A stretch of 46,107 bases of DNA from an uncultured Fibrobacteraceae bacterium. GTDB lineage: Bacteria; Krumholzibacteriota; Krumholzibacteriia; LZORAL124-64-63. The first letter of the stretch is position 1. The number at the start of each line of letters is the position of its first letter. The notes under the pieces were generated by a model. That model searched no databases. It saw nothing but the letters and a program-made list of their open reading frames with translations, and was not told the origin of the DNA. The DNA is taken from positions 1 through 46,107 of the forward strand of contig CAZLUL010000002.1 of the NCBI GenBank assembly GCA_964562635.1. Reading direction: 5' to 3'. A program made the translations under genes and the position numbers. This document shows positions 2,192-44,157 of the stretch, in pieces.

Positions 2192-3550
2192 TCAGGATGT
2201 TTCGTCCCTCAGTCCCAGATCCTTCAACAGGCGATTCAGGTAGCTGCGCTGCAGGCCCAGTTTCTCAGCTGCCCGGGTTTGGTTGCCATGGCACTCGTCC
2301 AGAATCCTGGTCAGCATATTGCGCTTGAAGCCGGCCACCGCCTCGCGGAATGGCAAACTCTCCAGAGCCCCAGGATCGATCAAATCAGGTGTGCGGATCT
2401 CCGCCGGCAGAAGTTCCGGAAGCAGAACCTTGCCTGGCGCCATGACGACCATGCGTTCCACCGCATTCTTGAGTTGGCGCACATTGCCCGGCCAGTTGTA
2501 GCTCTTCATGGCCTGTAGGGTCTGCGGGGCAAACTCCGGAATATCACGTTTCATGTCACCGGCGAAGCGGGCCAGAAATACGTGCCCAAGCAAGGCCACG
2601 TCCTCCGGTCGTTCCCGCAACGGAGGCACCCGCAGGGCAATGACATTCAGGCGGTAAAACAGGTCTTCACGAAAACGCCCGGCTTGGACCTCGCGCGCCA
2701 GATCCCGGTTGGTGGCCGCCACAATGCGGCAATCCACCCGCACGGTCTGAGTGCCACCGACACGCTCGAATTCTCCCGTCTCCAGAAAATGCAGCAATTT
2801 GGTCTGCAAACCGGCGCTGATATCCCCGATCTCGTCCAGGAAGGCTGTGCCGCCCGCCGCCCCTTCCAGGCGTCCCGGCTTGCGCGACACCGCACCGGTG
2901 AACGCTCCCCGTTCGTGCCCAAAAAGGGTCGACTCAATAAGATCTTCACTGATGGCCACACAATTCACATAGACAAAGGGGCCATCGCGGCGCGGGCTCG
3001 CCGCGTGGATATATTCGGACACCACTTGCTTGCCGCTGCCGCTTTCGCCGGCCAGGACAATGGTCGAATCGGATGCGGCAGCCCGGGCGGCCTCAGCCAG
3101 CAGCTGCTTCATCGCTGGTGATGCGGCCTGGACGGTGTTGGCGCTCTGCTCGGCCAGGGCGTCCCGTGTTTTTTGCAGGCGGCGCTGGTTAAGGGCCCGG
3201 GATGTGACCTGGGCCAACAGTTCGAAATCCGCAGGTTTGGTCAGGAAGTCCGAGGCGCCACCCCGTAAGGCCTCCACCGCCCGGCTCACCGACCCATGTG
3301 CCGTCAGAACCACGATATCCCCGGCAAATTTGTCGGCCCGCAGAGTCTGCAATACCTCCATACCACCGAGTCCAGGCATGGACAGATCCAAAAGGATCAG
3401 ATCAAAGGCACGTTCGGCGCAAACCGCCAAAGCCTCGTGGCCGTCGGCGGCCAGTTGGACCTGGCAGCCCCAGTGTTCGAATCTGTCCTGCAGGGCCATT
3501 CGCAAGGCCGCATCGTCATCAACGATCAGCACATCCGCTTTGAGTTCCAT
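2192..3550 (-). CDS. Sigma-54-dependent response regulator, NtrC family (REC + AAA+ + Fis-type HTH)
   Basis: REC domain with DDD...DLILLDLSMPG. Walker A GESGSGK, the GAFTGA sigma-54 contact loop, and a C-terminal HTH (NQTRAAEKLGLQRSYLNRLLK). Its start lies 1 nt after the kinase stop. Confidence 0.93.
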   Translation of the reverse strand: MELKADVLIVDDDAALRMALQDRFEHWGCQVQLAADGHEALAVCAERAFDLILLDLSMPGLGGMEVLQTLRADKFAGDIVVLTAHGSVSRAVEALRGGASDFLTKPADFELLAQVTSRALNQRRLQKTRDALAEQSANTVQAASPAMKQLLAEAARAAASDSTIVLAGESGSGKQVVSEYIHAASPRRDGPFVYVNCVAISEDLIESTLFGHERGAFTGAVSRKPGRLEGAAGGTAFLDEIGDISAGLQTKLLHFLETGEFERVGGTQTVRVDCRIVAATNRDLAREVQAGRFREDLFYRLNVIALRVPPLRERPEDVALLGHVFLARFAGDMKRDIPEFAPQTLQAMKSYNWPGNVRQLKNAVERMVVMAPGKVLLPELLPAEIRTPDLIDPGALESLPFREAVAGFKRNMLTRILDECHGNQTRAAEKLGLQRSYLNRLLKDLGLRDETS

Positions 3551-3551
3551 G

Positions 3552-6002
3552 TCAGTCCCCCCTGTTTCCCGAACCGGCCGGCGGCAAAACCAAAATGAAT
3601 TCGGCGCCCCCTGTCGGGTGGTTGCGGGCCGAGATTTCTCCGCCCATCAAACGCGTGTATTCCTGAGCGATGGCCAGACCCAGGCCATAGCCTCCACCTT
3701 CGTCGTGAGGGCTCGGTTGGCCCTGGGCGAAGCGGGCAAAAGGATCGGCAATGTCCTGAAAACCCGGCCCATGGTCGCGCACCTTCAGCAGCACCTGGTC
3801 GGCCTCGACCGCCGCCCCGATTTCCAGCACCGCACCCTGTGGCGAATACCGCACCCCGTTCTCCAGGATGTTGACCAGCACTTCAGCCAGCTTGTCTGCG
3901 TTGGTCTGCAGGCGCAGATCAGCCGGGGCCTGGGTGCAGCGCAGCTGGACATCCGCCGCTGCGGCCAGGGGGCGAATCATACCCAGGGCACGCGCCAGGA
4001 TCGGCTCCATCTCACAGTCTTCGGTCAGAATTTCCAGCTTGGCCTTCTGCAACCGACTGATCTCCAGCAGGTCACTCACCAGATGATTCAAATGCTCCAT
4101 CGAACCGGACATCGAAACAAGATATTCCTGCTGCCGGGGCTGCAGTTCGCCGGCCAGTCCGTCCAGCATATTGGTCAATGACCACCCCACGGCCGTCACC
4201 GGGGTCCGCAGGTCGTGGGCTACCTGGGAAAGGAAGTCGTCCTTGAAGCGGGTCAGCTCATCCAGTTGGGCCCACTTCATTTTCTCTGCGGACATTCTTT
4301 GCACCAGCCGGATCTCCTGCAGTCGGGCCGACGATGCCTCACACAGTTCCGTCAGAAATTTGAGGTCAGTGCGCACAAAGCGGTGTCCGATGCTTTTACG
4401 GCCGAGCAGGATCGCCCCCACGGATCGACCTTCGGCCTCCAGGGACAGGCTCAGCACATATCCTTCCTGCGCCAGATCGTCGGGAAACCCCGGGCTTTCC
4501 CGGTCCGGACAGGTCGTGGTCTCGGGCAGGGCCCGCAATGGACCGTTGGCGGTGGTGCGAAAATCCAGCCCAGCTGTCGCCGGGCTCAGAGCACCACCGA
4601 CCCGGGCTTCCCCGTCCACCGTTTCCACCAGGACCAGGCACATCTCGGGTGACAAGGCCTCGGTAACACGCCGGTGCAACAACAGCGCCAGATCATCCTG
4701 GCTGGAGACGGTTTTTAACTCCTGCTGCACAACCGATAGAATCTGGTCCACCCGATGTTCGATGCGAAAAAACAGGCGGTCGATCCAGCGGCCCAGCTCC
4801 TGGCGCAGGGGCTGAAATACGACCCCAGCCAAGACCCCGCACAGCACAGGCAAGGCCTGCCAGGCCCGCGGCCAGGCCTGGATCCGCTCGGGCTGCATCA
4901 GTCCCACCGGAACCAGAACCAGGCCCGCCATGCCGGCGGCCAGGACGCCGTACAGAATCCCACGGCGCAAAATAATATCGATATCCAAAAACCGGTAACG
5001 CACCACGGCAAAGACAAAGGCCAGAGGAATGGCCGGTTCAAAGACGCGGTCAAAATGGGGTGGGAAAAGCGGAGTCAGGTCCAGCAACTGGGCCAGGGTG
5101 CGCAGGAAAAGATAGGGCGAAGCGCCGATCACAAACCCGGTCAACAACCAGCGGGCCTGCTGGCGTTCACGGCCCGGTTCCAGTTTGCTGGCCTGGCTGA
5201 TCATGATCACGAATGCCACCAGGGCCTGCACCACCATCACCAGGTCGGCCACGTTCTGAGGCAGGCGCAGGGCGGCAGCATGGCTAAGGATAGGCTCGTG
5301 AAAGTAGCGCCCAAAGGCCTGGGCCTGCCAGACAACCAATAGAAACGCCAAAAAATAGAGACCGGCGGGCAGGTTTCGCATACGCCCCTGGCCCAACAAT
5401 CGCTTGGGAAAGATCAGCGTCATATGCAGAAAAATGGCCGGTAAAAAAGCCAGGCTAACCAACTGGGCCAGATTCAGGATCGTGCCCCGCAGCCCCAAAC
5501 CGAATTGGAAGTAGACGCCGTCCAGAAAGATGCCCAACCCATAAAGCATCGTCAGCCAATAGAACGGCGCCACCACAGTCCAGGACAGGCGGGGCACAAA
5601 TACAAAGCAGGCCACGAGCCAGAAAATAAGACCACTGGAAGCGGTGATCACGAGGTAGGAACCGGAATGCGTTGGCTCGGTCACAATGGCGCGCAGGCCA
5701 TCAGGCAACGGAATCCGAATTGTTTCGCCGGCGGGAAACCCTTCGACCAGGAAACGCAGGCTCTCGGCGTCGGCGAGCTGCACGCCCGCCACTTCCACCG
5801 GCCATTGCACATCCGACCAGGGAAAGTCGGCCGGCAGCCGGGCCAGACTCATCTGACGCATCAGGCCAGCAATACCCAGTATCAGCAACAGGGCAGAGAA
5901 CAACAGATAGGGCCAGTTCAACGATCTGCGCACGGAATACTCCCCGGTACGGTGACGCCCGGGGAGTATATCCGCCTTGCTCATGTTTGTACCAGACAAC
6001 AT
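3552..6002 (-). CDS. Multi-pass membrane sensor histidine kinase
   Basis: About 10 predicted TM helices are followed by the H-box FLSQVAHDLRTPVTAV, N-box LVNILENGVRYSP, G1 DHGPGF and G2 GGYGLGLAIA. I chose the ATG at 6002 (GGAG 6 nt upstream) over the track start at 6092, which would overlap the upstream OMP gene. The ATG at 5984 is an alternative. Confidence 0.9.
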   Translation of the reverse strand: MLSGTNMSKADILPGRHRTGEYSVRRSLNWPYLLFSALLLILGIAGLMRQMSLARLPADFPWSDVQWPVEVAGVQLADAESLRFLVEGFPAGETIRIPLPDGLRAIVTEPTHSGSYLVITASSGLIFWLVACFVFVPRLSWTVVAPFYWLTMLYGLGIFLDGVYFQFGLGLRGTILNLAQLVSLAFLPAIFLHMTLIFPKRLLGQGRMRNLPAGLYFLAFLLVVWQAQAFGRYFHEPILSHAAALRLPQNVADLVMVVQALVAFVIMISQASKLEPGRERQQARWLLTGFVIGASPYLFLRTLAQLLDLTPLFPPHFDRVFEPAIPLAFVFAVVRYRFLDIDIILRRGILYGVLAAGMAGLVLVPVGLMQPERIQAWPRAWQALPVLCGVLAGVVFQPLRQELGRWIDRLFFRIEHRVDQILSVVQQELKTVSSQDDLALLLHRRVTEALSPEMCLVLVETVDGEARVGGALSPATAGLDFRTTANGPLRALPETTTCPDRESPGFPDDLAQEGYVLSLSLEAEGRSVGAILLGRKSIGHRFVRTDLKFLTELCEASSARLQEIRLVQRMSAEKMKWAQLDELTRFKDDFLSQVAHDLRTPVTAVGWSLTNMLDGLAGELQPRQQEYLVSMSGSMEHLNHLVSDLLEISRLQKAKLEILTEDCEMEPILARALGMIRPLAAAADVQLRCTQAPADLRLQTNADKLAEVLVNILENGVRYSPQGAVLEIGAAVEADQVLLKVRDHGPGFQDIADPFARFAQGQPSPHDEGGGYGLGLAIAQEYTRLMGGEISARNHPTGGAEFILVLPPAGSGNRGD

Positions 6003-6015
6003 CACTTGCTCCGAC

Positions 6016-6612
6016 CTAGGGAGTGGCGCCGGCTGACCCGATGGCGTAGCCGAAGACCAGCGATACACGGTTGCCTTCGGGGCTGGTGGCATAGGCCAAA
6101 TTGATCGGAATACTCACGCCGCCGTAGTTGAAGCTTTTGCCAACTGCCAGCAACAGCGAGGTGCGGGCTTGCACATCACCTCCGCCCTCGGAATACTCAC
6201 CGTCTCCGACGGGCGTGGGAATCGACTTGGAAAAGGTCAGATTCGGTCCCATGCCAAATTCCAGGCCGCCCGGAGCCCGCATGCCCATCGCCAGGGTGAA
6301 GTTGGGAATGACCTTGCCGTACTCCACACCAGCCAACATGGGCACAAATTCGATCACGAACTGCGGTCCACCGCCCTTAGGGACGACTTGGTGTTCGAAG
6401 TGCCAGCCGAACTGACTGATCGTCCGCCCCATGTCATTATATTCCAATTCAGCGGCGAGCTGGGTGTTGCCCGGGATATAGGTCATGCCAAACCGCGGGC
6501 CACCAAGATTGCGGGTATTGATAGCGGAATTTTCGCCGGCCCCGGCTGCCAGGGGAATCGTGCTGAGCATCAGAATTGCGCCCAATACCAGTTTTTTTTG
6601 CAAGGTATTCAT
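6016..6612 (-). CDS. Outer-membrane beta-barrel protein candidate, 198 aa
   Basis: SD GAGGAG, signal peptide MNTLQKKLVLGAILMLSTIPLAAGAG, and a Gly/aromatic-rich alternating beta-strand pattern. It is the first gene of the OMP-kinase-regulator string. Confidence 0.65.
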   Translation of the reverse strand: MNTLQKKLVLGAILMLSTIPLAAGAGENSAINTRNLGGPRFGMTYIPGNTQLAAELEYNDMGRTISQFGWHFEHQVVPKGGGPQFVIEFVPMLAGVEYGKVIPNFTLAMGMRAPGGLEFGMGPNLTFSKSIPTPVGDGEYSEGGGDVQARTSLLLAVGKSFNYGGVSIPINLAYATSPEGNRVSLVFGYAIGSAGATP

Positions 6613-6725
6613 GATTGCTGCTCCTCGGTCAGGGTGATGGTTACACCTTCCCTATTACAAAGAGCGTACCACGACATCAATTTCGGCCCACAAGCCCACA
6701 ATCTCTTGTCATGATCGCATTTACA

Positions 6726-6761
6726 GAAATATCCCGCCGGGTCAAACCGGCGGGATATTTC
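6726..6761 (-). terminator. Terminator hairpin downstream of the OYE/Prx operon
   Basis: Perfect 15-bp inverted repeat GAAATATCCCGCCGG-N6-CCGGCGGGATATTTC with a GC-rich core and U-rich distal part, 73 nt after the Prx stop. Confidence 0.6.
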
Positions 6762-6833
6762 GCAATCCGTGATCTTGGCGCCACAACCCTGTATGCCAAT
6801 CCATACACCTGCGAGACCGGGCCAGCGCTGCTA

Positions 6834-7484
6834 TCACCCCAAGGCGCCCAGTATTTCCAGAGTGGCTTCCGGTTCCGGTCGCTGCGTGTAGTCCGGATCC
6901 GTGGTCAAGTTGCGCATCACACCCTGCCGGTCAACCACGACTCGCGTGGCCAACGGCAATTCCCAGGCCTCGACCCCATGGTTCTGCGGCAGATCGATGC
7001 CAAACCCCACGTACAATTCGCGCAACGTATCGGGCAATGTGTACACCAGCGAAAGGCTTTTCGCGTACGAATTGTCCCGATCATGCAGCACCGGGAACGA
7101 CAGCTTGTGTGTGCTTTTCACCTCGGCATTTTTCTCAGGCAACTGGGGAGAAATCGCCACCAGTTGCGCACCCAGGGCGCGAAATTTCTCGGCCGTACGT
7201 TGCAGAGCATCCAGCTCCGCGTTGCAATAGGGTCACCACACTCCCCGATAGAAGGTGATCACCGCCGGCCCGTTTGCCAGCAATTCATCTGAACTGACAA
7301 TGTTGCCCTCGGTGTCCGGCAAACTGAAGGCCGGCAGTTGGGAACCCACAGCCGGCAAACCGGCCATGATTCCCGAGTCGCGCAAACCCTGAACCGCCTC
7401 TTCAAATGTTGCGACGACCTCGGGCGGGACCTGGGCCTGAAAGCCCGCCTTGATGCGGTCCAGGCGTTCCTGCAAAGTGCTCAT
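6834..7484 (-). CDS. Peroxiredoxin-like (AhpC/TSA, PRX_like2-type) thioredoxin-fold protein with in-frame UGA, a predicted selenoprotein of 216 aa with a U-x-x-C redox centre
   Basis: Track ORFs 7233..7484 and 6834..7160 share one frame (324 nt apart). The only stop between them is TGA at 7235..7233. Read-through gives ...AVITFYRGVW-U-PYCNAELDALQRTAEKFRALGAQLVAISPQ..., which is the FYRGxWCPxC motif. A SECIS-like hairpin follows and selB is in the window. Confidence 0.75.
7200..7227 (-). promoter_or_regulatory. Candidate bacterial SECIS stem-loop
   Basis: The mRNA reads UGA-CCCUAUUGCAAC-GCGGAGC-UGGAU-GCUCUGC-AA. The 7-bp stem (one G.U) starts 12 nt after UGA. The apical loop GG sits at +24/+25. 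An alternative outer pairing is UUGCA/UGCAA. Confidence 0.55.
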
Positions 7485-8617
7485 GATTGCTCCTTTGTCC
7501 CGGTCTCCATGGCCGGATCATAATTGGGGTACTCCGTATAACCGGCCGGTGAGTCTCCGACCGCATACCAGGATTCCTGCGCCGGCAACGGAGCCAGCGG
7601 CCAGTTGTTGCGGAACCGCTCGACCAGGTCGGGATTGGCCAGATAGGGGCGCCCGATGGCGATCAGATCTCCGGCACCACTGTCGATCGCAGCTTCGGCG
7701 CTGGTCTGATCGTAGCCACAGTTTCCGATCAACGGGCCGTTAAAAACCGCGCGAAAATCGGCCAACGTCATGGGCTCTCCCTGCTCGTGGAATCCAAATG
7801 CCAACCCATCCATCAGGTGCAGATAGGCCAGACCGAAAGTATCCAGTTCGCCGGCGGCATAGAGGAACGTTTCCCGAAAATCAGGCGACCCCATGTCGTT
7901 GAAGACACCGTTGGGCGCCAGACGAACGCCAACCTTCGCGGCGCCGATGGCATCGCTGATGCCTGCGACAATTTCGCGCAGCAGGCGGAAACGGTTTTCG
8001 ATGCTGCCGCCATATTCGTCATCACGCTGGTTGGTGCGCGACTGCAGGAATTGATCCAGCAGATAGCCATTGGCCGCGTGAATTTCGACACCGTCGAATC
8101 CGGCCGCCGCCGCCCGCTCCGCCGCCGAGACGTAGTCGGCGACAATACCGGCCAATTCGCCCGTTTTCAGAGCACGGGGAGTTTCGTAGTCTTTCTTGCC
8201 CAGGGGTGTATGGATACCGTCGCCAGCCAGTCGGATCGCCGAAGGCGCCACCGGCAAGGCTCCGTCGTGGAAGTCACTGTGGGAGGCCCTTCCCATGTGC
8301 CACAGCTGAAGGAAGATCCGACCTCCTTTGGCATGCACGGCCTCGACCACCTGACGCCAGGAATCGCCCTGCTCATCGGTGTAGATGCCCGGCGCCCCAA
8401 CCCAGCCATTGCCCTGGGGGGAGACGGATGTCGCTTCGGTGACGATCAGCCCGGCGCTGGCCCGTTGGGCGTAATATTCGGCTATCAGGCTATTGGCAAT
8501 ACGGCCTGGACCGGCCTTCGAACGGGTCATCGGCGCCAGGACCACCCGGTTGTTGAGCGTCAAATCGCCCACCTTGACCGGGTCAAGCAGTGCAGAGCGT
8601 GGTTCAGCAGAACTCAT
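7481..8617 (-). CDS. NADH:flavin oxidoreductase / alkene reductase, Old Yellow Enzyme family (NemA-like)
   Basis: LNNRVVLAPMTR, IFLQLWHMGR, GFDGVEIHAANGYLLDQFL and a C-terminal IAIGRPYLANPDL. Its stop overlaps the Prx ATG (ATGA). The start may be 8617 (AGAAAGG upstream) or 8641. Confidence 0.9.
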   Translation of the reverse strand: MSSAEPRSALLDPVKVGDLTLNNRVVLAPMTRSKAGPGRIANSLIAEYYAQRASAGLIVTEATSVSPQGNGWVGAPGIYTDEQGDSWRQVVEAVHAKGGRIFLQLWHMGRASHSDFHDGALPVAPSAIRLAGDGIHTPLGKKDYETPRALKTGELAGIVADYVSAAERAAAAGFDGVEIHAANGYLLDQFLQSRTNQRDDEYGGSIENRFRLLREIVAGISDAIGAAKVGVRLAPNGVFNDMGSPDFRETFLYAAGELDTFGLAYLHLMDGLAFGFHEQGEPMTLADFRAVFNGPLIGNCGYDQTSAEAAIDSGAGDLIAIGRPYLANPDLVERFRNNWPLAPLPAQESWYAVGDSPAGYTEYPNYDPAMETGTKEQS

Positions 8618-8678
8618 CAGTCCGACCTTTCTGTTTCGCATTCATTTCGGCTGGGTTGGAATCTTCGACTTGCCCTGC

Positions 8679-23994: not shown

Positions 23995-25428
23995 TCAGGC
24001 AGGCTTAAATTCGTCCGGATCCACGCCCAGATCCCTCAATTTGCGTTGGAAAGACTGGCGCAGAACACCGCTGGCCTCGGCGGCCCGACTGACATTGCCG
24101 CCAGCGGCCCGCAATCGGTTGCGGCAATATTGACGCTCCCGCTCCTCCTTGGCCCCGTCGCCGGCCTCTTTCAAGGACATCGTCTCGGATTCTGCGGCGC
24201 CCCCCCCGCCCGATGCCTCGCCGGATATCTCGTCGGATGACTCGTCAGCCCGCATATCAAACCCAGGATCCAAACCGAACATGTCCCCCAGTCCAATCAA
24301 TCCTCCCCGACAGTTGATCACCGCGCGCTCGACAAAATTGCGCAACTCGCGCACGTTGCCTGGCCACCGTTCCTGCAGGATACGCTGTTCTACGGCCGGT
24401 GAGAATCCGGCGATGGCCCGGGCGTTTTCAGCGGCGAACTGATCCAGGAAATGGCGGGCCAGGACCATCACATCGCCGGGTCGCTGCCGCAAGGCGGGCA
24501 ACTTGATGCGATAGATATTCAGGCGGTAATAAAGATCTTCACGGAACGTGCCCTCGTTGATCGCCTCGGTCAGATCCCGACTGGTGGCCGCCACGATGCG
24601 GCAACGCACCTCGCGTTCGACATTTTCGCCCAGGCGCACAAACATCTTCTCGCCCAGGGCACGCAACAGCTTGACCTGCAAGTCCAGCGGAGCTTCACCC
24701 ACTTCGTCCATGAAGAACGTGCCACCGGCCGCCAATTCCAGTTTGCCGATGCGCGACTTGGCCCCGGTGAACGCCGCCTGGCTGTGGCCAAAAATTTCCG
24801 ACTCGATCAGGTCAGCCGGAAAGGCCGAGCAATTGATGCCCACAAACGGCCCGCTGCTATAGTTGCTGCCTTCATGAACCCGGCGCGCGATCATTTCCTT
24901 GCCCGTGCCCGACTCGCCTGTGATCAGTACGGTCGCAGTGGTGCCGGCCACGGTATCGGCCTGCTCGAGAACCCGGAACATCCTATCGTCGCCACAGATA
25001 AAAGAGCCGGTCAGGCGGCCCAACTCTCCCTGTTGGGCCTGAATTTGGCGTTTGCTCCGGCCGGCCACCAGGGCCCGCTCGATCAGGTTGAACAGCTCCG
25101 GGGGGTCTGCTGGTTTGATCACATAGTGGAAGGCCCCCAGCTTCATGGCCTCAACCACGGTGCTGACCCGGGTCCGGCCCGAAAGCATGATCACTGGCGG
25201 CGGGTCGTCCAGGGCCCGGATACGTTCCAGGATCTGCACGCCGTTGACTTCACTGCCCTCGAATTCCACATCCAGCAGGACCACATCAGGACTGATGACG
25301 GCGATTTTTCTCAGCCCGGCTTCCGCATCGTGGGCCATGTCGATGTTGTAGCGGGAGCCGAGCACGGCCTCCAGGTCGTCGCAGAAATCGGGTTCGTCAT
25401 CGAGCAGAAACAGGCGGGGCCGGTTCAT
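23995..25428 (-). CDS. Sigma-54-dependent response regulator, NtrC family
   Basis: REC (LLDDEP...DVVLLDVEF), Walker A GESGTGK, the AAFTGA loop, and a C-terminal Fis-type HTH (GGNVSRAAEASGVLRQSFQRKLR). The ATG at 25428 lies 1 nt after the UDG stop. Confidence 0.92.
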   Translation of the reverse strand: MNRPRLFLLDDEPDFCDDLEAVLGSRYNIDMAHDAEAGLRKIAVISPDVVLLDVEFEGSEVNGVQILERIRALDDPPPVIMLSGRTRVSTVVEAMKLGAFHYVIKPADPPELFNLIERALVAGRSKRQIQAQQGELGRLTGSFICGDDRMFRVLEQADTVAGTTATVLITGESGTGKEMIARRVHEGSNYSSGPFVGINCSAFPADLIESEIFGHSQAAFTGAKSRIGKLELAAGGTFFMDEVGEAPLDLQVKLLRALGEKMFVRLGENVEREVRCRIVAATSRDLTEAINEGTFREDLYYRLNIYRIKLPALRQRPGDVMVLARHFLDQFAAENARAIAGFSPAVEQRILQERWPGNVRELRNFVERAVINCRGGLIGLGDMFGLDPGFDMRADESSDEISGEASGGGGAAESETMSLKEAGDGAKEERERQYCRNRLRAAGGNVSRAAEASGVLRQSFQRKLRDLGVDPDEFKPA

Positions 25429-25429
25429 C

Positions 25430-26371
25430 TCAACCCTCTTCCGCTTGCAGGGCCTCACTCAGCGCCTGCAGTTTGCGCACGTCGTCCCAAGTGTCGCGTT
25501 TCCAGCTCGGATTGCGCAACAGGGCGGCCGGATGGAAGGTCGCCATCACCGGCACCCCGGCGTAAAAATGCACCGAATTGCGCAGCTTGCCCAGGCTCAG
25601 ATCGGTCTTGAGCAGGGTTTGGGCCGCCACCCGCCCCAGGCAACAGATCACCCGCGGTTGCAGGATCGCCAACTGACGTTTCAGGTGCGGCTCACAGTGT
25701 TGAACCTCATGCGGTTGCGGGTCGCGATTATTGGGCGGCCGGCACTTCAGGATATTGCAGATGTAGACATCGTCGCGGGAGTAGCCGAGGGCATCCAGAA
25801 TCTTGGTGAGCAACTGACCACTGGCGCCCACGAATGGTTCGCCCTGCTGGTCTTCTTCCCGCCCCGGTGCCTCGCCAATAAAAACCACATCGGCCCGGGG
25901 ATTGCCGGTGCCAAAGACGGTGGTCTGGCGAGTGCCACTCAAATCGCACGCCGTGCAGGGCCGGACTTCGGCTTCCAGGGCGGCCATGGCAGCGGCCGCA
26001 TCATCGGCGTGGGCTGTGAGCAGGGGTTCGGTCACCGGTGCAGTAGGATCCGCCTCGGCCTGGCGCTTGATCAGGGCCATGGTCTCGCCCACGAACTGAT
26101 CACATCGTGCGCGGAAGGCGGCTTCCTTGTCGTTGGCCGGCACCGGTCCGGCTGGTTTGGCCCGTGTTGCGGGTGTTGCGGGTTTTGCGGGTTCAACCGG
26201 TGCCGGAGCCGGCGCCGCAGCTTCGGCCACCTCAGGTTCCGCTGTCACCGGAATCACCTCGGGCCGGCTGCCTTCATCCAGGTACCATTCGGCTCCCTGG
26301 GCCCGGTTCTGGCGGATCCAGGCCTGCAGGTCTCCAATGATGTTTTGGCGCTCGTCCGGGTGATTAGCCAT
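25430..26371 (-). CDS. Uracil-DNA glycosylase, family 4, with a roughly 140-aa N-terminal extension
   Basis: Motif [24 protein letters not shown], motif [14 protein letters not shown], and Fe-S Cys residues (CTAC...C). The N-terminus contains a Pro/Ala-rich linker. Confidence 0.85.
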
Positions 26372-35285: not shown

Positions 35286-37193
35286 TCAAAGCGAAGGCCC
35301 GGCCCGGCGCACATCCCCCGCCCGCACCGTCAGCCCGCTGTAATCCAGATACTCCAGCATCGGAATCCCCAGTTTACGAGTCAAACCACTCAAGGCCCGG
35401 AATTCAGCAAAGGCGATTTCTTCGTTCACCGCAAAATGACTCCGCAGCTTTGTCAGCAATTCATCCAGCGCCGACTTTGCCACGTGGTACTCGTTGGAAA
35501 TCGCCACGGCCTGCCCATGGTCGACCAAATGACGGATGACTTCGGCGGCGCGGAATTCCTGCAATTCCTTGTCAGCCGCAGAACCTCTGAATACCGGTGA
35601 TTCTTCCGACCAGTTGTCCAACCCCGGCCAGTCCAGACCAAAGTTTTCCAATTCGCCACCGGCTTTCTGCATCGCCGCCTGCATCGCCGGACCCAGCACC
35701 GGCCCGGTGGCCGTTGGCCCAATGCGGTCATCGACCACCACCCAGGACGCCGTCTCAGCCAATTTCAGGCAGATGGCGCTCCACTCATTGGGTCCTGCCT
35801 TGAACTTGCATTTGCGCCGGCACTCTTCCTTCGGCACGCCCAGTCGCAAGGGGAAACGGGCCGCATAGGCTGTCACGTTTTCGCCGATTTGCCCGGCCAA
35901 GTCGTCCATCAGTTCACGATGGTACAGGCGTTTGCCGACCCGCAGGGCATCCGGGTCGTCCTGCTGGCCCAAAGCTTCGGCCAGGGACAAACCCGCCGTG
36001 CCAGCCTGCCGCAGGTTCTGTCGGAACAGCTCGGCCGGATCGCCGCTTTCCATGATGATCAGGTTTTCCTGGGCCTGTTCGTCAAAACGCTTGTGCCTTT
36101 GGGGCGCCGCATCAAGCACCACCCCGCCAGCGATACTCGTGACCGGCGAATAGAAACGCAGCACCAGGCGGTCTTCACGGGCGGCAACCAGTTCATCTTC
36201 AAGATGCAACTGGGCCAGGCCCGTGCGCGGACCGCCCTGGCCACCGAGTTCTTCTTCATCCAGCAGCACGACGCGCGCCAACACTTCCCGTCCGGCGTGG
36301 TGCACGTGCACGCGCTGACGGTTTTTGATCACGCCCTGGTAGTGGCCCATCACGTTCAGGCGCACGTCCAGTCGGCGGGTTACCGCCGCGCTGCCAGGTG
36401 TCACCAGCTGGAAACCCCGGGCAATGTCGTCTTTTTTGACGCCGTTCAGGGCCAGGGCCAGGCGTTGTCCAGAGGCGCCGCGTTGGGCCTTCTTGCCATG
36501 CACCTGCACCTCGCGCACGCGCACCGGCAAGGCGCCGGGTTCGAAGACCAGTTTGTCCCCGATTTTCACCGCTCCGCCCCAACAGGTTCCCGTCACCACC
36601 ACGCCGGCGCCGGGCATTGTAAAAACCCGATCCACCGGCATCCGAAAGGCGCCCTCTTCGCGACGCGCCGGCAAGGCCAGGGCTGCCTGCCGCAAGGCGT
36701 CCTTCAATTCCTCCAGCCCCGTGCCCACATGGGCCGAAACCGCCACGATGGGCTTGTCTTCCAGAAATGTGCCCTCAACCAGCTCCATGGCTTCTTCGGT
36801 GGCCACCGCCAGGATTTCTTCGTCCACCATGTCGATTTTGCTCATGACCACGACCCCGCTGCGCACGCCGAGCGAGTCGAGGATTTCCAGATGTTCGATC
36901 GTCTGGGGCATGACCCCTTCATCGGCCGCCACCAGCAGGAAGGCCAGGTCCACACCGCCGGCGCCACTGACCATTTGTTTGACGAATTTTTCATGGCCCG
37001 GCATGTCCACCACACCCAGCATCACGCCTTCGCCCAGGTCCAGCTCGGCAAAACCCAGCTCGATGCTGATGCCGCGCTCGCGCTCTTCCTTCAGGCGATC
37101 GGTGTGGGTGCCGGTCAGGGCGGTGATCAACGCCGTCTTGCCGTGATCAACATGGCCGGCGGCACCGAGGATGAAATGACGTGTCGCGCTCAT
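35286..37193 (-). CDS. selB: Selenocysteine-specific translation elongation factor
   Basis: GHVDHGKT, DMPGHEKF, SKID, an EF-Tu-like domain II/III, and a roughly 270-aa C-terminal winged-helix-type extension. The start is trimmed to the ATG at 37193 (MSATRHFILGAAGHVDHGKT). Confidence 0.9.
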   Translation of the reverse strand: MSATRHFILGAAGHVDHGKTALITALTGTHTDRLKEERERGISIELGFAELDLGEGVMLGVVDMPGHEKFVKQMVSGAGGVDLAFLLVAADEGVMPQTIEHLEILDSLGVRSGVVVMSKIDMVDEEILAVATEEAMELVEGTFLEDKPIVAVSAHVGTGLEELKDALRQAALALPARREEGAFRMPVDRVFTMPGAGVVVTGTCWGGAVKIGDKLVFEPGALPVRVREVQVHGKKAQRGASGQRLALALNGVKKDDIARGFQLVTPGSAAVTRRLDVRLNVMGHYQGVIKNRQRVHVHHAGREVLARVVLLDEEELGGQGGPRTGLAQLHLEDELVAAREDRLVLRFYSPVTSIAGGVVLDAAPQRHKRFDEQAQENLIIMESGDPAELFRQNLRQAGTAGLSLAEALGQQDDPDALRVGKRLYHRELMDDLAGQIGENVTAYAARFPLRLGVPKEECRRKCKFKAGPNEWSAICLKLAETASWVVVDDRIGPTATGPVLGPAMQAAMQKAGGELENFGLDWPGLDNWSEESPVFRGSAADKELQEFRAAEVIRHLVDHGQAVAISNEYHVAKSALDELLTKLRSHFAVNEEIAFAEFRALSGLTRKLGIPMLEYLDYSGLTVRAGDVRRAGPSL

Positions 37194-38595: not shown

Positions 38596-39165
38596 CTACC
38601 CCAGGCTCAGGCCACAGTCGGGGCACTGCTCGGCCGCCTCGTCCACCCCATAACCACAGGCCGGACACGTGCCCACCTCGAATTCGAACGAGAGCCCCCG
38701 AAACTGTCCCGGATGAAGACTTTCGAAGACCTCATCAATGAGGGCGTTGGCCTGCTCGTATTGTTCCCGGGACACAAAGAGAATGTAGTGGAATCCCTCG
38801 AGCACCGTGCCCACCGGGACCTGCTCGGCACCGCCGCCGGAAATCGTCCGGCCCAGGACAACCGAATCGGTGTGCTGCAGTTCCCCCGGGTCATACCGGG
38901 TGGCCGGCAGAACGGCGCCCCGGATTCCCGCGGCTTTAAAATGCCCCAAGTAGGCCTTGATCACATATTCGTGGTCGGCAACCAACTCACCCAGAATGAC
39001 TCCGGATGCGAAATTTTCCCAATTCGCCTCTTCGAGCGTCTCGGCCAGGATGACTACGCCAGCCTTGCTGGCCCAGATCAAGGGCACCCTGCAATCCGCA
39101 CAGCTCTGGGCCCGGGACAGATACTCCACCCGACACTCGGGGCAAATCTTGTTCTCGTCTGTCAC
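38596..39165 (-). CDS. Hypothetical protein with N- and C-terminal zinc-ribbon motifs
   Basis: CPEC-x11-CADC at the N-terminus and CPAC-x10-CPDC at the C-terminus flank two roughly 60-aa repeats of similar pattern. No family assigned with confidence. Confidence 0.55.
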   Translation of the reverse strand: MTDENKICPECRVEYLSRAQSCADCRVPLIWASKAGVVILAETLEEANWENFASGVILGELVADHEYVIKAYLGHFKAAGIRGAVLPATRYDPGELQHTDSVVLGRTISGGGAEQVPVGTVLEGFHYILFVSREQYEQANALIDEVFESLHPGQFRGLSFEFEVGTCPACGYGVDEAAEQCPDCGLSLG

Positions 39166-42161: not shown

Positions 42162-43055
42162 TTATCCCACTTGGGCTGTCGCCACGCGATCCCGCTCGGT
42201 ATAGTCCTGAATGATCTGCACATCCTGGCCGCCGGAAGCTGCCAGGATCGCCTTCACATCCGGCCCCTGATCGTCGCCGATTTCCACGGCGATGTGGCCA
42301 CCAGGCCGCAGCCAGGCCCCCATTTTTGCAGCCAACGCCCGATAGAAAGCCAGCCCATCGGGCCCGCCATCGAGGGCCGTGTGGGGATCGTGCCCTTTCA
42401 CATCTTCGGGCAGATCGGCAATGTCGTCGTGCCGGATGTAGGGCGGATTGCTCACCAGCAGGTCCACCTGGCCGGCCAGTTGCTTCGGCAGCGGATCAAA
42501 GCGGCTGCCCAGATGGATATTCACCCGCGCCTCGACCCCCAGGGTGTGGGCGTTGCGTCCGGCCAATTCCACAGCCAAAGGGTTGATGTCCGTCGCGTGC
42601 ACCGTCAGGCGCGGCAGCTCGGCCGCCAGGCTCACACTGATGACTCCCGTGCCGCAACCGATTTCCACCGCCAGCGGCGCCACGAGCCCCGTATCACCGG
42701 GCGTCAGCAACGCCACCGCCGCCTCGACCAGGTGTTCGGTCTCGGGCCGCGGTATGAATACGCCGGACGCGACCTTGAAGGTGCGCGAGTAGAATTCTGT
42801 CTCGCCGAGAATTTTCTGGAGGGGTTCGCCACCGGCCCGCCGCTTGACCACCACACGGTAGGCGTCCAACTCGTCACCCAAAACCGGCCGGTCAAACTGC
42901 ATGAACAACTCGATGCGCGAAACGCCGAGCACGTCGGCCAGCAGGCGTTCGGCATTCAGTTTGGCCGAGTCCACACCCTTGTCCGCGAAGTACTCGCTGG
43001 TGACCCGGATCAACTCGCGAACCGTCTTGTTGGCTGCCGCACTGGTCATGAACAT
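42162..43055 (-). CDS. prmC: Peptide chain release factor N5-glutamine methyltransferase
   Basis: NPPY motif (LLVSNPPYI), motif I EIGCGTG, and a position directly downstream of prfA. The start is 43055 or 43049. Confidence 0.92.
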   Translation of the reverse strand: MFMTSAAANKTVRELIRVTSEYFADKGVDSAKLNAERLLADVLGVSRIELFMQFDRPVLGDELDAYRVVVKRRAGGEPLQKILGETEFYSRTFKVASGVFIPRPETEHLVEAAVALLTPGDTGLVAPLAVEIGCGTGVISVSLAAELPRLTVHATDINPLAVELAGRNAHTLGVEARVNIHLGSRFDPLPKQLAGQVDLLVSNPPYIRHDDIADLPEDVKGHDPHTALDGGPDGLAFYRALAAKMGAWLRPGGHIAVEIGDDQGPDVKAILAASGGQDVQIIQDYTERDRVATAQVG

Positions 43056-43086
43056 TCCGCACGAAGGAGTGATAGGAACCGCAAAA

Positions 43087-44157
43087 TTACGAACGCGTCG
43101 CCGCCAGAGCCTCTTCCCGACGGTAGGCCAAAATGGCATCCACCACTTCGCCCAGCTCGCCGGCCATGATGGCGTCAAGACTGTGCACGGTCAACCCGAT
43201 GCGATGATCGGTCACGCGACTTTGGGGAAAATTGTAGGTCCGGATCTTGGCGCTGCGGTCGCCGGTGCCCACCTGGCTCTTGCGCTCGGCCGCGATCTTG
43301 GCCTCATGCTCCATGATGGCCGCCTCCAGAATGCGCGAACGCAAGACACCCATGGCCTTGGCCTTGTTCTTGTGCTGGGATTTCTCGTCCTGGCACTGCA
43401 CCACGATCCCAGTCGGGATGTGGGTGATGCGAACCGCGCTGTCAGTCGTATTGACCGACTGCCCGCCCGGCCCCTGGGCCCGGTACACATCGATGCGAAT
43501 TTCGGCGGGCCTGATCTCGACGTCGACTTCTTCGGCTTCGGGCAAGACCGCCACCGTGATGGCCGAGGTGTGGATGCGGCCCTGGCTTTCGGTGGCCGGC
43601 ACCCGCTGAACCCGTTGCACGCCGCTTTCCCAGCGCAGGATGCCAAAGGCTCCTTCACCGCGCACGGCGTAAATGACTTCTTTGACGCCGCCGGCCGTGC
43701 CTTCGGTGATATCAATCAGTTCGGTTTTCCAGCCGCGCTTTTCGGCATAGCGCACGTACATGCGCGAAATCTCTTCGGCAAACAGCGCGGCCTCGTCGCC
43801 GCCGGTGCCAGCCCGGATTTCCAGAATCGCGTCGCGGTCATCGTTCGGATCATGAGGTAACAGGGCCGATTCCAGTTCTACGGCCGCCTGGGCCATCTGC
43901 GGTTCGAGCTGTGCCAATTCCTCTTTGACCATTTCAAGCATGTCCGGATCCTTCTCGGACTTGACCAGAGCCTGGTTTTCCTCGATCTGGGTGGTCAGAT
44001 CCAGCCACCGCTCGCCAATGGCCAACTGTTTGCTCACCCGCGAGTGCGTACGCGTGAGCTTGCGATAGGCCGCCTGGTCATTCAGCACATTGGGCTGAGA
44101 CAGGGCTTCGCCCAGCTCGGCGTATTTCTCCCGCAAGGTCTCAACGTTGGCTTTCAC
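43087..44157 (-). CDS. prfA: Peptide chain release factor 1
   Basis: GGQ motif ([10 protein letters not shown]), PAT-type tripeptide region ([14 protein letters not shown]), and a GTG start overlapping the upstream stop (GTGA). Confidence 0.97.

Follow-up and report, generated by a model that had tools for sequence, protein, structure and literature searches.

A predicted Prx-like selenoprotein gene, stored as two fragments, in an uncultured Krumholzibacteriota bacterium

Results

The gene, its reading frame and the predicted recoded codon

The DNA analysed here, called the window throughout, is a 46,107-nucleotide (nt) stretch of contig CAZLUL010000002.1 from an uncultured bacterium placed in the Krumholzibacteriota. 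On its minus strand, two open reading frames (ORFs), 7233..7484 (83 amino acids, aa) and 6834..7160 (108 aa), share a single frame, and translation of 6834..7484 places one stop between them, the TGA at 7235..7233. From this TGA to the GTG of the 108-aa ORF run 24 open codons (PYCNAELDALQRTAEKFRALGAQL). Read-through yields a 216-aa product with the junction AVITFYRGVW-U-PYCNAELDALQ, the peptide across the UGA being GVW-U-PYCNAELDALQR, and the gene's own terminator is the TGA at 6836..6834, with a TAG directly after it. An earlier note on this DNA had read the locus in this way (two ORFs in one frame, a single TGA, 24 open codons and FYRGVW-UGA-PYC), and translation confirms each point. The region thus presents as a complete predicted gene (6834..7484, minus strand; 216 codons plus stop) for an AhpC/TSA, Prx-like selenoprotein with the motif U84-P-Y-C87, as judged by the single frame, the Pfam domain PF00578, full-length homologues and an AlphaFold2 model. 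The in-frame UGA at codon 84 (7233..7235, minus strand) is predicted to be read as selenocysteine (Sec), on the strength of a Cys column in homologues and a TGA in orthologues and assemblies. In alignments, the Cys87 codon (7224..7226, minus strand) encodes the resolving partner of U-x-x-C, at the peroxidatic-Cys position of true peroxiredoxins. We put at roughly 0.93 the probability that this locus is one gene for a 216-residue AhpC/TSA "Prx-like" selenoprotein whose UGA codon 84 is decoded as Sec.

The Pfam AhpC-TSA domain spans the junction (residues 46-191, E = 3.3e-25, 88.9 bits against a cutoff of 26), so the single-gene structure is more than chance. The public protein collection contains the gene in two parts, proteins of 83 and 108 aa, and lacks a read-through product; this is the mis-annotation that the earlier note had anticipated. 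Neither fragment has a Pfam hit on record in any assembly examined. The TGA and the hairpin that follows it are identical in six independent assemblies (two from NCBI, three from ENA and one from Logan) and are also found in a close relative, locus L267, which leaves a sequencing or assembly error, with TGC miscalled as TGA, a vanishingly small probability.

Homologues and the Cys/Sec column

A homologue search covering 5.8 billion proteins returned 509 matches, the top 120 of which are nearly all 212-230 aa long and cover 94-100% of the query. Full-length homologues therefore extend across the junction with Cys at the UGA column, as had been proposed as a check. In alignment A1 this column is Cys in 22 of 24 homologues, within an invariant F-Y-R-G-x-W-C-P-Y-C context, and both Cys87 and R80 are invariant; NCBI names the Cys homologues "peroxiredoxin-like family protein", a name consistent with the candidate assignment to PRX_like2 (CDD cd02970) in the earlier note. 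The remaining two show W, and the DNA of both reads TGA. These are the closest homologues, P0001 (the closest match, 60% identity) and P0004, each with TGA at the codon 84 column, so the Trp is a gene-caller artefact. The false-Trp entries for UGA forms (GVW-W-PYC) comprise P0001, encoded at L001:91-741, and P0004, encoded at L002:523-1173 and L003:113-763; the P0004 cluster holds 42 member sequences. Such entries could mislead family alignments and models.

The database translations of orthologous TGA as Trp (P0001, P0004) are also what speaks for a different explanation, in which UGA has a reassigned meaning or is passed without selenium, yielding for example Trp, Gly or Cys (codes 4 or 25, or near-cognate decoding). 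In aligned homologues, however, the column is Cys and never Trp or Gly once the artefactual W is set aside. TGA is moreover the commonest ordinary stop here, ending 13 of the 25 supported genes of the window, the selenoprotein gene included, and an in-frame TGA occurs in no other of these 25. A dedicated selB is also present (35286..37193, minus strand), standing alone between murA and ispG. Its 635-aa gene call matches TIGR00475 at 358 bits (cutoff 242) and carries the Pfam domains GTP_EFTU, Beta-barrel_SelB and WHD_3rd_SelB, and its cluster-mate MDX2473792.1 is named selenocysteine-specific translation elongation factor; the assignment of selB to this position in the earlier note is thereby upheld. 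We consider reassignment very improbable. When TGA read-through was applied mechanically to the window it gave 97 candidates; only at 6834..7484 does a supported frame go with both a redox motif and a hairpin, and other recoded genes in the window were dropped.

UGA-form orthologues across phyla

The degenerate pattern F-[YF]-R-G-x-W-TGA-P-[YF]-C matched at least 120 loci in the genome collection and at least 120 in the metagenome collection. All 244 matches listed (240 collection loci, the window and L001-L003) are open on each side of the TGA. Full-length orthology to the window protein, at 38-60% identity across ~210 residues, holds for 59 of them (57 distinct); the 57 distinct orthologues come from many phyla, carry the TGA at the same codon and have both halves open. 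The genome matches listed fall in Acidobacteriota, Gemmatimonadota, Poribacteria, Dehalococcoidia, deltaproteobacteria, Phycisphaerae and other lineages, and one orthologue (L041) was found in a Geobacter metagenome-assembled genome. About 180 of the matches listed (L004-L243) are non-orthologous and belong to other AhpC/TSA architectures that share the motif, such as a short 152-aa form (L007), a membrane-anchored form (L004) and, from Poribacteria, proteins with a long extension at the N-terminus (L005, L008).

The close relative L267 (positions 810-1460, aligned with 6834..7484) shows 38 differences in 651 nt, with the TGA retained and no frameshift. Its codon changes, 27 synonymous and 10 non-synonymous, are distributed over both halves, and not one difference lies between -48 and +45 around the UGA, where ~5 would be expected at the gene's average rate; this unchanged stretch takes in the active-site codons and the hairpin. 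Judged from the substitutions, the pattern is one of purifying selection. It bears directly on the idea of a pseudogene, that is, a Cys-form gene killed by a TGC/TGT-to-TGA nonsense mutation with its downstream part decaying. This idea draws on the two fragments without a recorded Pfam hit that gene callers report, and on a true pseudogene of the family, L257, carried by plasmid CP085709.1 of Bacillus sp. CMF21 (413038-413979). The excess of synonymous changes on both sides of the TGA in L267, the TGA held at one codon in the 57 distinct orthologues listed with both halves open and conserved, and a codon-maintained hairpin that follows the TGA only in UGA forms all argue against decay, and the stop of L257 lies at a different codon, with the Cys retained. 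A pseudogene is accordingly most unlikely. Near and distant relatives retain the UGA instead of carrying unrelated truncations, an outcome that the earlier note had singled out as one to check. L257 was itself considered as a Sec form and rejected, as its stop falls six codons before the CxxC (VI*TFYRGGWCPFC); this Cys-form homologue adjoins trxA, is annotated as two fragments and makes a useful negative example.

In a rough neighbour-joining tree built from 57 Sec forms and 111 Cys forms, at least nine state changes are implied, and the nearest neighbour is a Sec form for 50 of the 57 Sec forms. The tree is crude and samples the Sec and Cys classes differently, and we draw no firm direction of exchange from it; a Sec/Cys mosaic, as far as these sequences represent it, is usual for such families.

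A hairpin in fixed register after the UGA

Immediately downstream, the mRNA can form a predicted bacterial selenocysteine insertion sequence (bSECIS) hairpin at 7202..7220 (minus strand), with the stem GCGGAGC/GCUCUGC and the loop UGGAU (7209..7213), supported by folding, codon fixation and pair counts. It starts 12 nt past the UGA and occupies nt +16 to +34 (U of UGA = 1), with loop G at +24/+25, and it appears in both the minimum free energy (MFE) and the centroid structures. The 7-bp hairpin described in the earlier note is therefore present with its loop G residues at these positions; its conservation, though, is limited to the six inner pairs of the stem, since the outermost pair, 16-34, holds in 26 of the 57 orthologues. 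Consensus bSECIS criteria call for a loop of 3-9 nt that has G in its first two positions, an upper stem of 4-16 bp, a UGA-to-loop distance of 16-37 nt and an MFE of at most -7.5 kcal/mol (PMC13188914). The window hairpin, with a 5-nt loop, 7 bp, G at loop positions 2-3, 19 nt from UGA to loop and -13.7 kcal/mol, lies within all of these bounds, in line with a proposed check, as do 52 of the 57 orthologues listed, 46 of these 52 with a spacing of 19-20 nt. The same bounds hold for 152 of the 176 distinct non-orthologous matches listed. Over the hairpin, the 57 orthologues listed align without gaps, and nearly all read xxGAGC-UGGNN-GCUCxx in the same register.

Several observations weigh against a dedicated Sec-insertion element and against Sec decoding at this locus. 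Five of 14 Cys-form controls also pass the bSECIS criteria, at other positions; the criteria are thus permissive, and we dropped them as a sufficient discriminator and placed the weight on fixed register, codon fixation and covariation. The hairpin stretch encodes a conserved N-x-E-L-x-A-L peptide, and part of the stem pairing potential stems from the conserved E-L-x-A-L. The stability of the 76-nt region is unremarkable beside that of dinucleotide shuffles (z = -0.54); this null is uninformative here and was replaced by a within-gene permutation of synonymous codons. An Rfam search of the whole window at gathering thresholds gave no match at all, and an E-value search of 7150..7270 returned only a spurious miRNA match (E = 6.7). 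A tRNA scan and the annotated ORFs disclosed no tRNA gene, selA or selD within the 46-kb window. Finally, the actual insertion of Sec at codon 84 is something we infer.

Because peptide conservation could explain part of the hairpin signal, three controls were run: codon permutation, Cys forms and pair counts. For the permutation null, synonymous codons were shuffled within each gene and the energy of nt +13..+39 was computed. Across the 57 orthologues listed, the mean energy of this segment is -9.5 kcal/mol as observed versus -4.2 kcal/mol as permuted, and every one of the 57 genes folds better than the mean of its own permutation null. For the window hairpin the corresponding values are -12.7 and -5.1 kcal/mol, and 1 of 200 permutations reaches the observed value. 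The codons concerned are strongly fixed relative to the background of the same genes: GAG at Glu +6 in 54/55 (background 52%), CUG at Leu +7 in 53/56 (38%), GCU at Ala +9 in 51/57 (11%) and CUA at Leu +10 in 18/55 (5%).

The Cys-form controls comprise thirteen plasmid genes from diverse bacteria and one viral-contig gene; plasmids were used because a scan of viral contigs for Cys-form DNA gave one locus only. These 14 genes encode the same type of peptide and contain no GAGC...GCUC hairpin; their codons are scattered and their energies mostly lie between 0 and -4 kcal/mol. The hairpin is kept in UGA orthologues, as the earlier note had asked to see, and is absent from these Cys forms.

Pair counts point the same way. 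In the 57 orthologues listed, 85.2% of cells are paired in the proposed register versus 31-48% after a shift of the 3' arm by 1-3 nt. Pair 17-33 is C-G in 21 and U-A in 18 sequences, a compensatory switch, and pair 18-32 is G-U in 29 and A-U in 21. RNAalifold on the 45-nt alignment returned 5 pairs only (-1.72), a weak result attributable to the near-invariance of most stem columns, for which reason the pair counts are more informative. By these comparisons of coding sequence, the hairpin is maintained by codon choice in UGA forms, which is selection at the RNA level.

Protein fold, active site and proposed decoding

AlphaFold2 models the read-through product with high confidence (predicted local distance difference test, pLDDT, 96.4; predicted template modelling score, pTM, 0.92). 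Residue 84 sits between strand 74-78 and helix 86-103, the CxxC position of the thioredoxin fold, and two additional N-terminal helices lie within residues 4-36. The subfamily of the window protein is a 216-225-aa form with this N-terminal two-helix extension and a C-terminal DPDYTxRPEP motif; by inspection, neither a membrane anchor nor a signal peptide is evident in the window protein. In Foldseek the product falls among Prx-type thioredoxin folds, the best matches being BCP/PrxQ/AhpE peroxiredoxins (probability 1.00, target TM-score 0.85-0.90, 18-21% identity), followed by ResA. All NCBIfam models score below their cutoffs, including ResA NF002854 (39 bits versus 170) and the SelL-related NF040769 (30.9 versus 120), and Pfam AhpC-TSA_2 reaches 20 bits against a 27-bit cutoff.

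The fold also bears on the notion that the locus encodes two separate small proteins (83 and 108 aa), either independent or forming a split enzyme, for which the GTG start of the 108-aa ORF at 7160 can be cited. Divided in this way, the thioredoxin fold would be broken after strand beta-1, before the active-site helix, and neither product would retain the CxxC; the 24 codons from TGA to GTG are open and conserved, including the invariant Cys87, and no homologue is naturally split at this point except by the TGA. We regard two separate proteins as exceedingly improbable.

The canonical peroxiredoxin motif P-x-x-x-T-x-x-C is absent from the single selenoprotein, which reads R80-G-V-W-U84-P-Y-C87 at this position. 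Aligned to PDB 2ywn (F-Y-P-A-A-F-T-Q-V-C), Arg80 falls on Pro, Sec84 on Thr and Cys87 on the peroxidatic Cys. The earlier placement of the UGA at the N-terminal redox Cys thus stands for a thioredoxin-type CxxC; against a peroxiredoxin TxxC it does not, as the UGA there equals the Thr and Cys87 takes the peroxidatic position. The protein is a peroxiredoxin scaffold without PxxxTxxC that bears a thioredoxin-type U-x-x-C.

In the proposed decoding, SelB carrying Sec-tRNA(Sec) would bind the mRNA hairpin 7202..7220 while the ribosome stands at UGA codon 84, and Sec would be inserted there in place of termination. If the protein works like CxxC oxidoreductases, the attacking nucleophile would be Sec84, which lies at the N-terminal end of helix alpha-1 within W-U-P-Y-C; a Sec84-Cys87 selenenylsulfide would then form and be reduced by a thiol reductant. 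This attack and the Sec84-Cys87 selenenylsulfide are the likely chemistry, and the candidate substrate may be a disulfide, a peroxide or another electrophile.

Neighbouring genes and genome context

Upstream of the selenoprotein gene lies a gene for an old yellow enzyme (OYE)-family NADH:flavin oxidoreductase (7481..8641, minus strand), identified by OYE-type matches and NF007899 (334 bits, below the cutoff of 403); in other assemblies this gene carries the Pfam domain Oxidored_FMN. The two genes are translationally coupled, the OYE stop TGA (7483..7481) and the ATG that starts the selenoprotein frame (7484..7482) sharing nucleotides as ATGA, and a Shine-Dalgarno-like AAGGAG occupies 7490..7495, 5 nt 5' of that ATG. 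The selenoprotein gene is presumably co-transcribed with this upstream flavin reductase. OYE is adjacent in 4 of the 58 orthologue loci listed, and a conserved OYE/Prx-like operon as a general feature was therefore rejected.

On the other side, ~75-110 nt 3' of the selenoprotein stop, a terminator-like hairpin of ~14 bp with a 6-nt loop, followed by UUUCUGU, occupies 6727..6760 (minus strand); it is near-perfect (AAAUAUCCCGCCGG-UUUGAC-CCGGCGGGAUAUUU), and folding of 6705..6836 gives -55.8 kcal/mol (z = -3.8). This hairpin likely closes the OYE/Prx-like transcription unit. Owing to its short U tail, it escaped a consensus terminator scan.

Just downstream of the pair, an 846-aa sensor histidine kinase and a sigma-54-dependent response regulator are encoded at 2192..6092 (minus strand), and a histidine kinase also follows in the relative L267; a second sigma-54 response regulator lies at 23995..25458 (minus strand). 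Between the selenoprotein and histidine kinase genes is a 198-aa ORF (6016..6612, minus strand) with a signal-peptide-like N-terminus and no NCBIfam match. The other annotated ORFs of the window are housekeeping genes, for example leuS, mlaDEF, dnaB, coaBC, gmk, ispG, murA, prfA and prmC; prfA (encoding release factor 1, RF1) and prmC are found at 42162..44157. SelB, MurA and RF1 each share a cluster at >=90% identity with proteins that bear the name Candidatus Krumholzibacteria bacterium (MDX2473792.1 and neighbours).

A 189-aa ORF (38596..39165, minus strand), between murA/selB and an lpxL-like gene, weakly matches NF049953 (53 bits, cutoff 130), the model "zinc ribbon-containing (seleno)protein DG". 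Its zinc-ribbon CxxC pairs, two at each end (CPEC...CADC and CPAC...CPDC), are all Cys, and with no in-frame UGA it was rejected as a recoded gene. This neighbour of selB is perhaps related, in Cys form, to a selenoprotein family.

Discussion

The reading of 6834..7484 as one selenoprotein gene is supported directly by its one frame, the homology over the junction, the Cys/Sec column, the conservation of the UGA, RNA-level selection on the hairpin, selB and the fold. Bacterial selenoproteins of this kind have been documented as Prx-like 1 or "Prx-like thiol:disulfide oxidoreductase" (PF00578, UxxC) in 2005 (PMC1088965), 2007 (PMC1976440), 2008 (PMC2398784) and 2026 (PMC13188914). In the GOS study, "Prx-like 1" (pfam00578, UxxC) comprised 225 selenoproteins and 2,740 Cys homologues (PMC2398784). 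Among the selenoproteins given in the Olavius symbiont study is a "Prx-like thiol:disulfide oxidoreductase", and the study notes mis-annotation of every selenoprotein gene there (PMC1976440); the 2026 review counts the family (PF00578, UxxC/UxxU) among those predicted with high confidence, with WP_010940744.1 as the reference protein (PMC13188914). By sequence, the window gene has the two features that define the Prx-like 1 class, PF00578 and U-x-x-C (W-U-P-Y-C, not T-x-x-U). It shares with that class the AhpC/TSA domain, the U-x-x-C in place of the TxxU of Sec-peroxiredoxins, a bSECIS directly after the UGA, abundant Cys homologues and Sec forms that gene callers routinely mis-annotate. The published class is broad, the pattern scan showing several architectures that share the motif; the window subfamily is one form, likened to the class through these features.

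The hairpin resembles the E. coli fdhF and consensus bSECIS elements as a stem-loop within the coding region just past the UGA, with a 5-nt apical loop, G at positions 2-3 and an upper stem of 6-7 bp. In the fdhF SECIS, loop G23/U24 are critical, and we take the UGA-to-loop spacing of the window element to be one nucleotide off that of fdhF. The two elements have no sequence resemblance, and no bulged U is evident in the window element. Unlike fdhF and the consensus bSECIS, it is short and its GAGC-UGGNN-GCUC is fixed across phyla, owing to its overlap with the conserved E-L-x-A-L codons.

At the protein level, BCP/PrxQ and AhpE (PDB 3hjp, 5epf, 4x1u, 2ywn) are the best structural matches, and Cys87 aligns with their peroxidatic Cys; the Pro and Thr of P-x-x-x-T-x-x-C are missing in the window protein, which adds an N-terminal helical pair. 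In ResA/TlpA (PDB 3c71, 1st9), the W-C-P-H-C of ResA aligns residue for residue with W-U-P-Y-C, pointing to a likely CxxC-oxidoreductase chemistry, although NF002854 scores below its cutoff and the structural match is weaker than to BCP/PrxQ. True Sec-containing peroxiredoxins (TxxU) have PF00578 and the overall fold in common with the window protein and are likewise selenoproteins; in them Sec replaces the peroxidatic Cys (T-x-x-U), whereas here it lies three residues upstream, at the Thr.

The gene belongs to a selenoprotein family known since 2004-2005 and would not surprise a specialist; the judgement in the earlier note that it is a mis-annotation-prone selenoprotein rather than a new principle was right, the family having been described in 2004-2008, and knowledge of how selenocysteine is encoded is unchanged by these findings. 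The searchable literature ties Candidatus Krumholzibacteriota to selenocysteine in a single paper, and there only incidentally; this is probably the first sign of Sec use in the group. A wider proposal would join three claims: that this is the first sign of Sec decoding in Krumholzibacteriota; that in this subfamily the ancestral state is the Sec form, with a spread through soil and sediment phyla (Acidobacteriota, Gemmatimonadota, Poribacteria, Dehalococcoidia, Phycisphaerae and others) far beyond what present annotation shows; and that an unusually sequence-fixed SECIS (GAGC-UGGNN-GCUC), laid over the E-L-x-A-L codons, decays at each Sec-to-Cys replacement. Taken jointly, these claims are tentative, and we would sooner doubt than expect that all three hold.

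The fixed-register hairpin, the synonymous-codon signature and the matched Cys controls form a clean training set for a bacterial SECIS model, and, if the element is as predicted, it could seed a family-specific covariance model of the kind that Rfam lacks. The main value of the finding is one of annotation. The gene is a genuine, systematically mis-annotated selenoprotein: in every public assembly examined it appears as two unnamed pieces of 83 and 108 aa or, among relatives, with a Trp wrongly entered at the active site. The 240 or more loci that match the pattern suggest a large annotation problem for AhpC/TSA-type selenoproteins in soil and sediment phyla. With such genes stored in pieces or under a false Trp, the redox capacity and the selenium dependence of these uncultured bacteria are under-counted.

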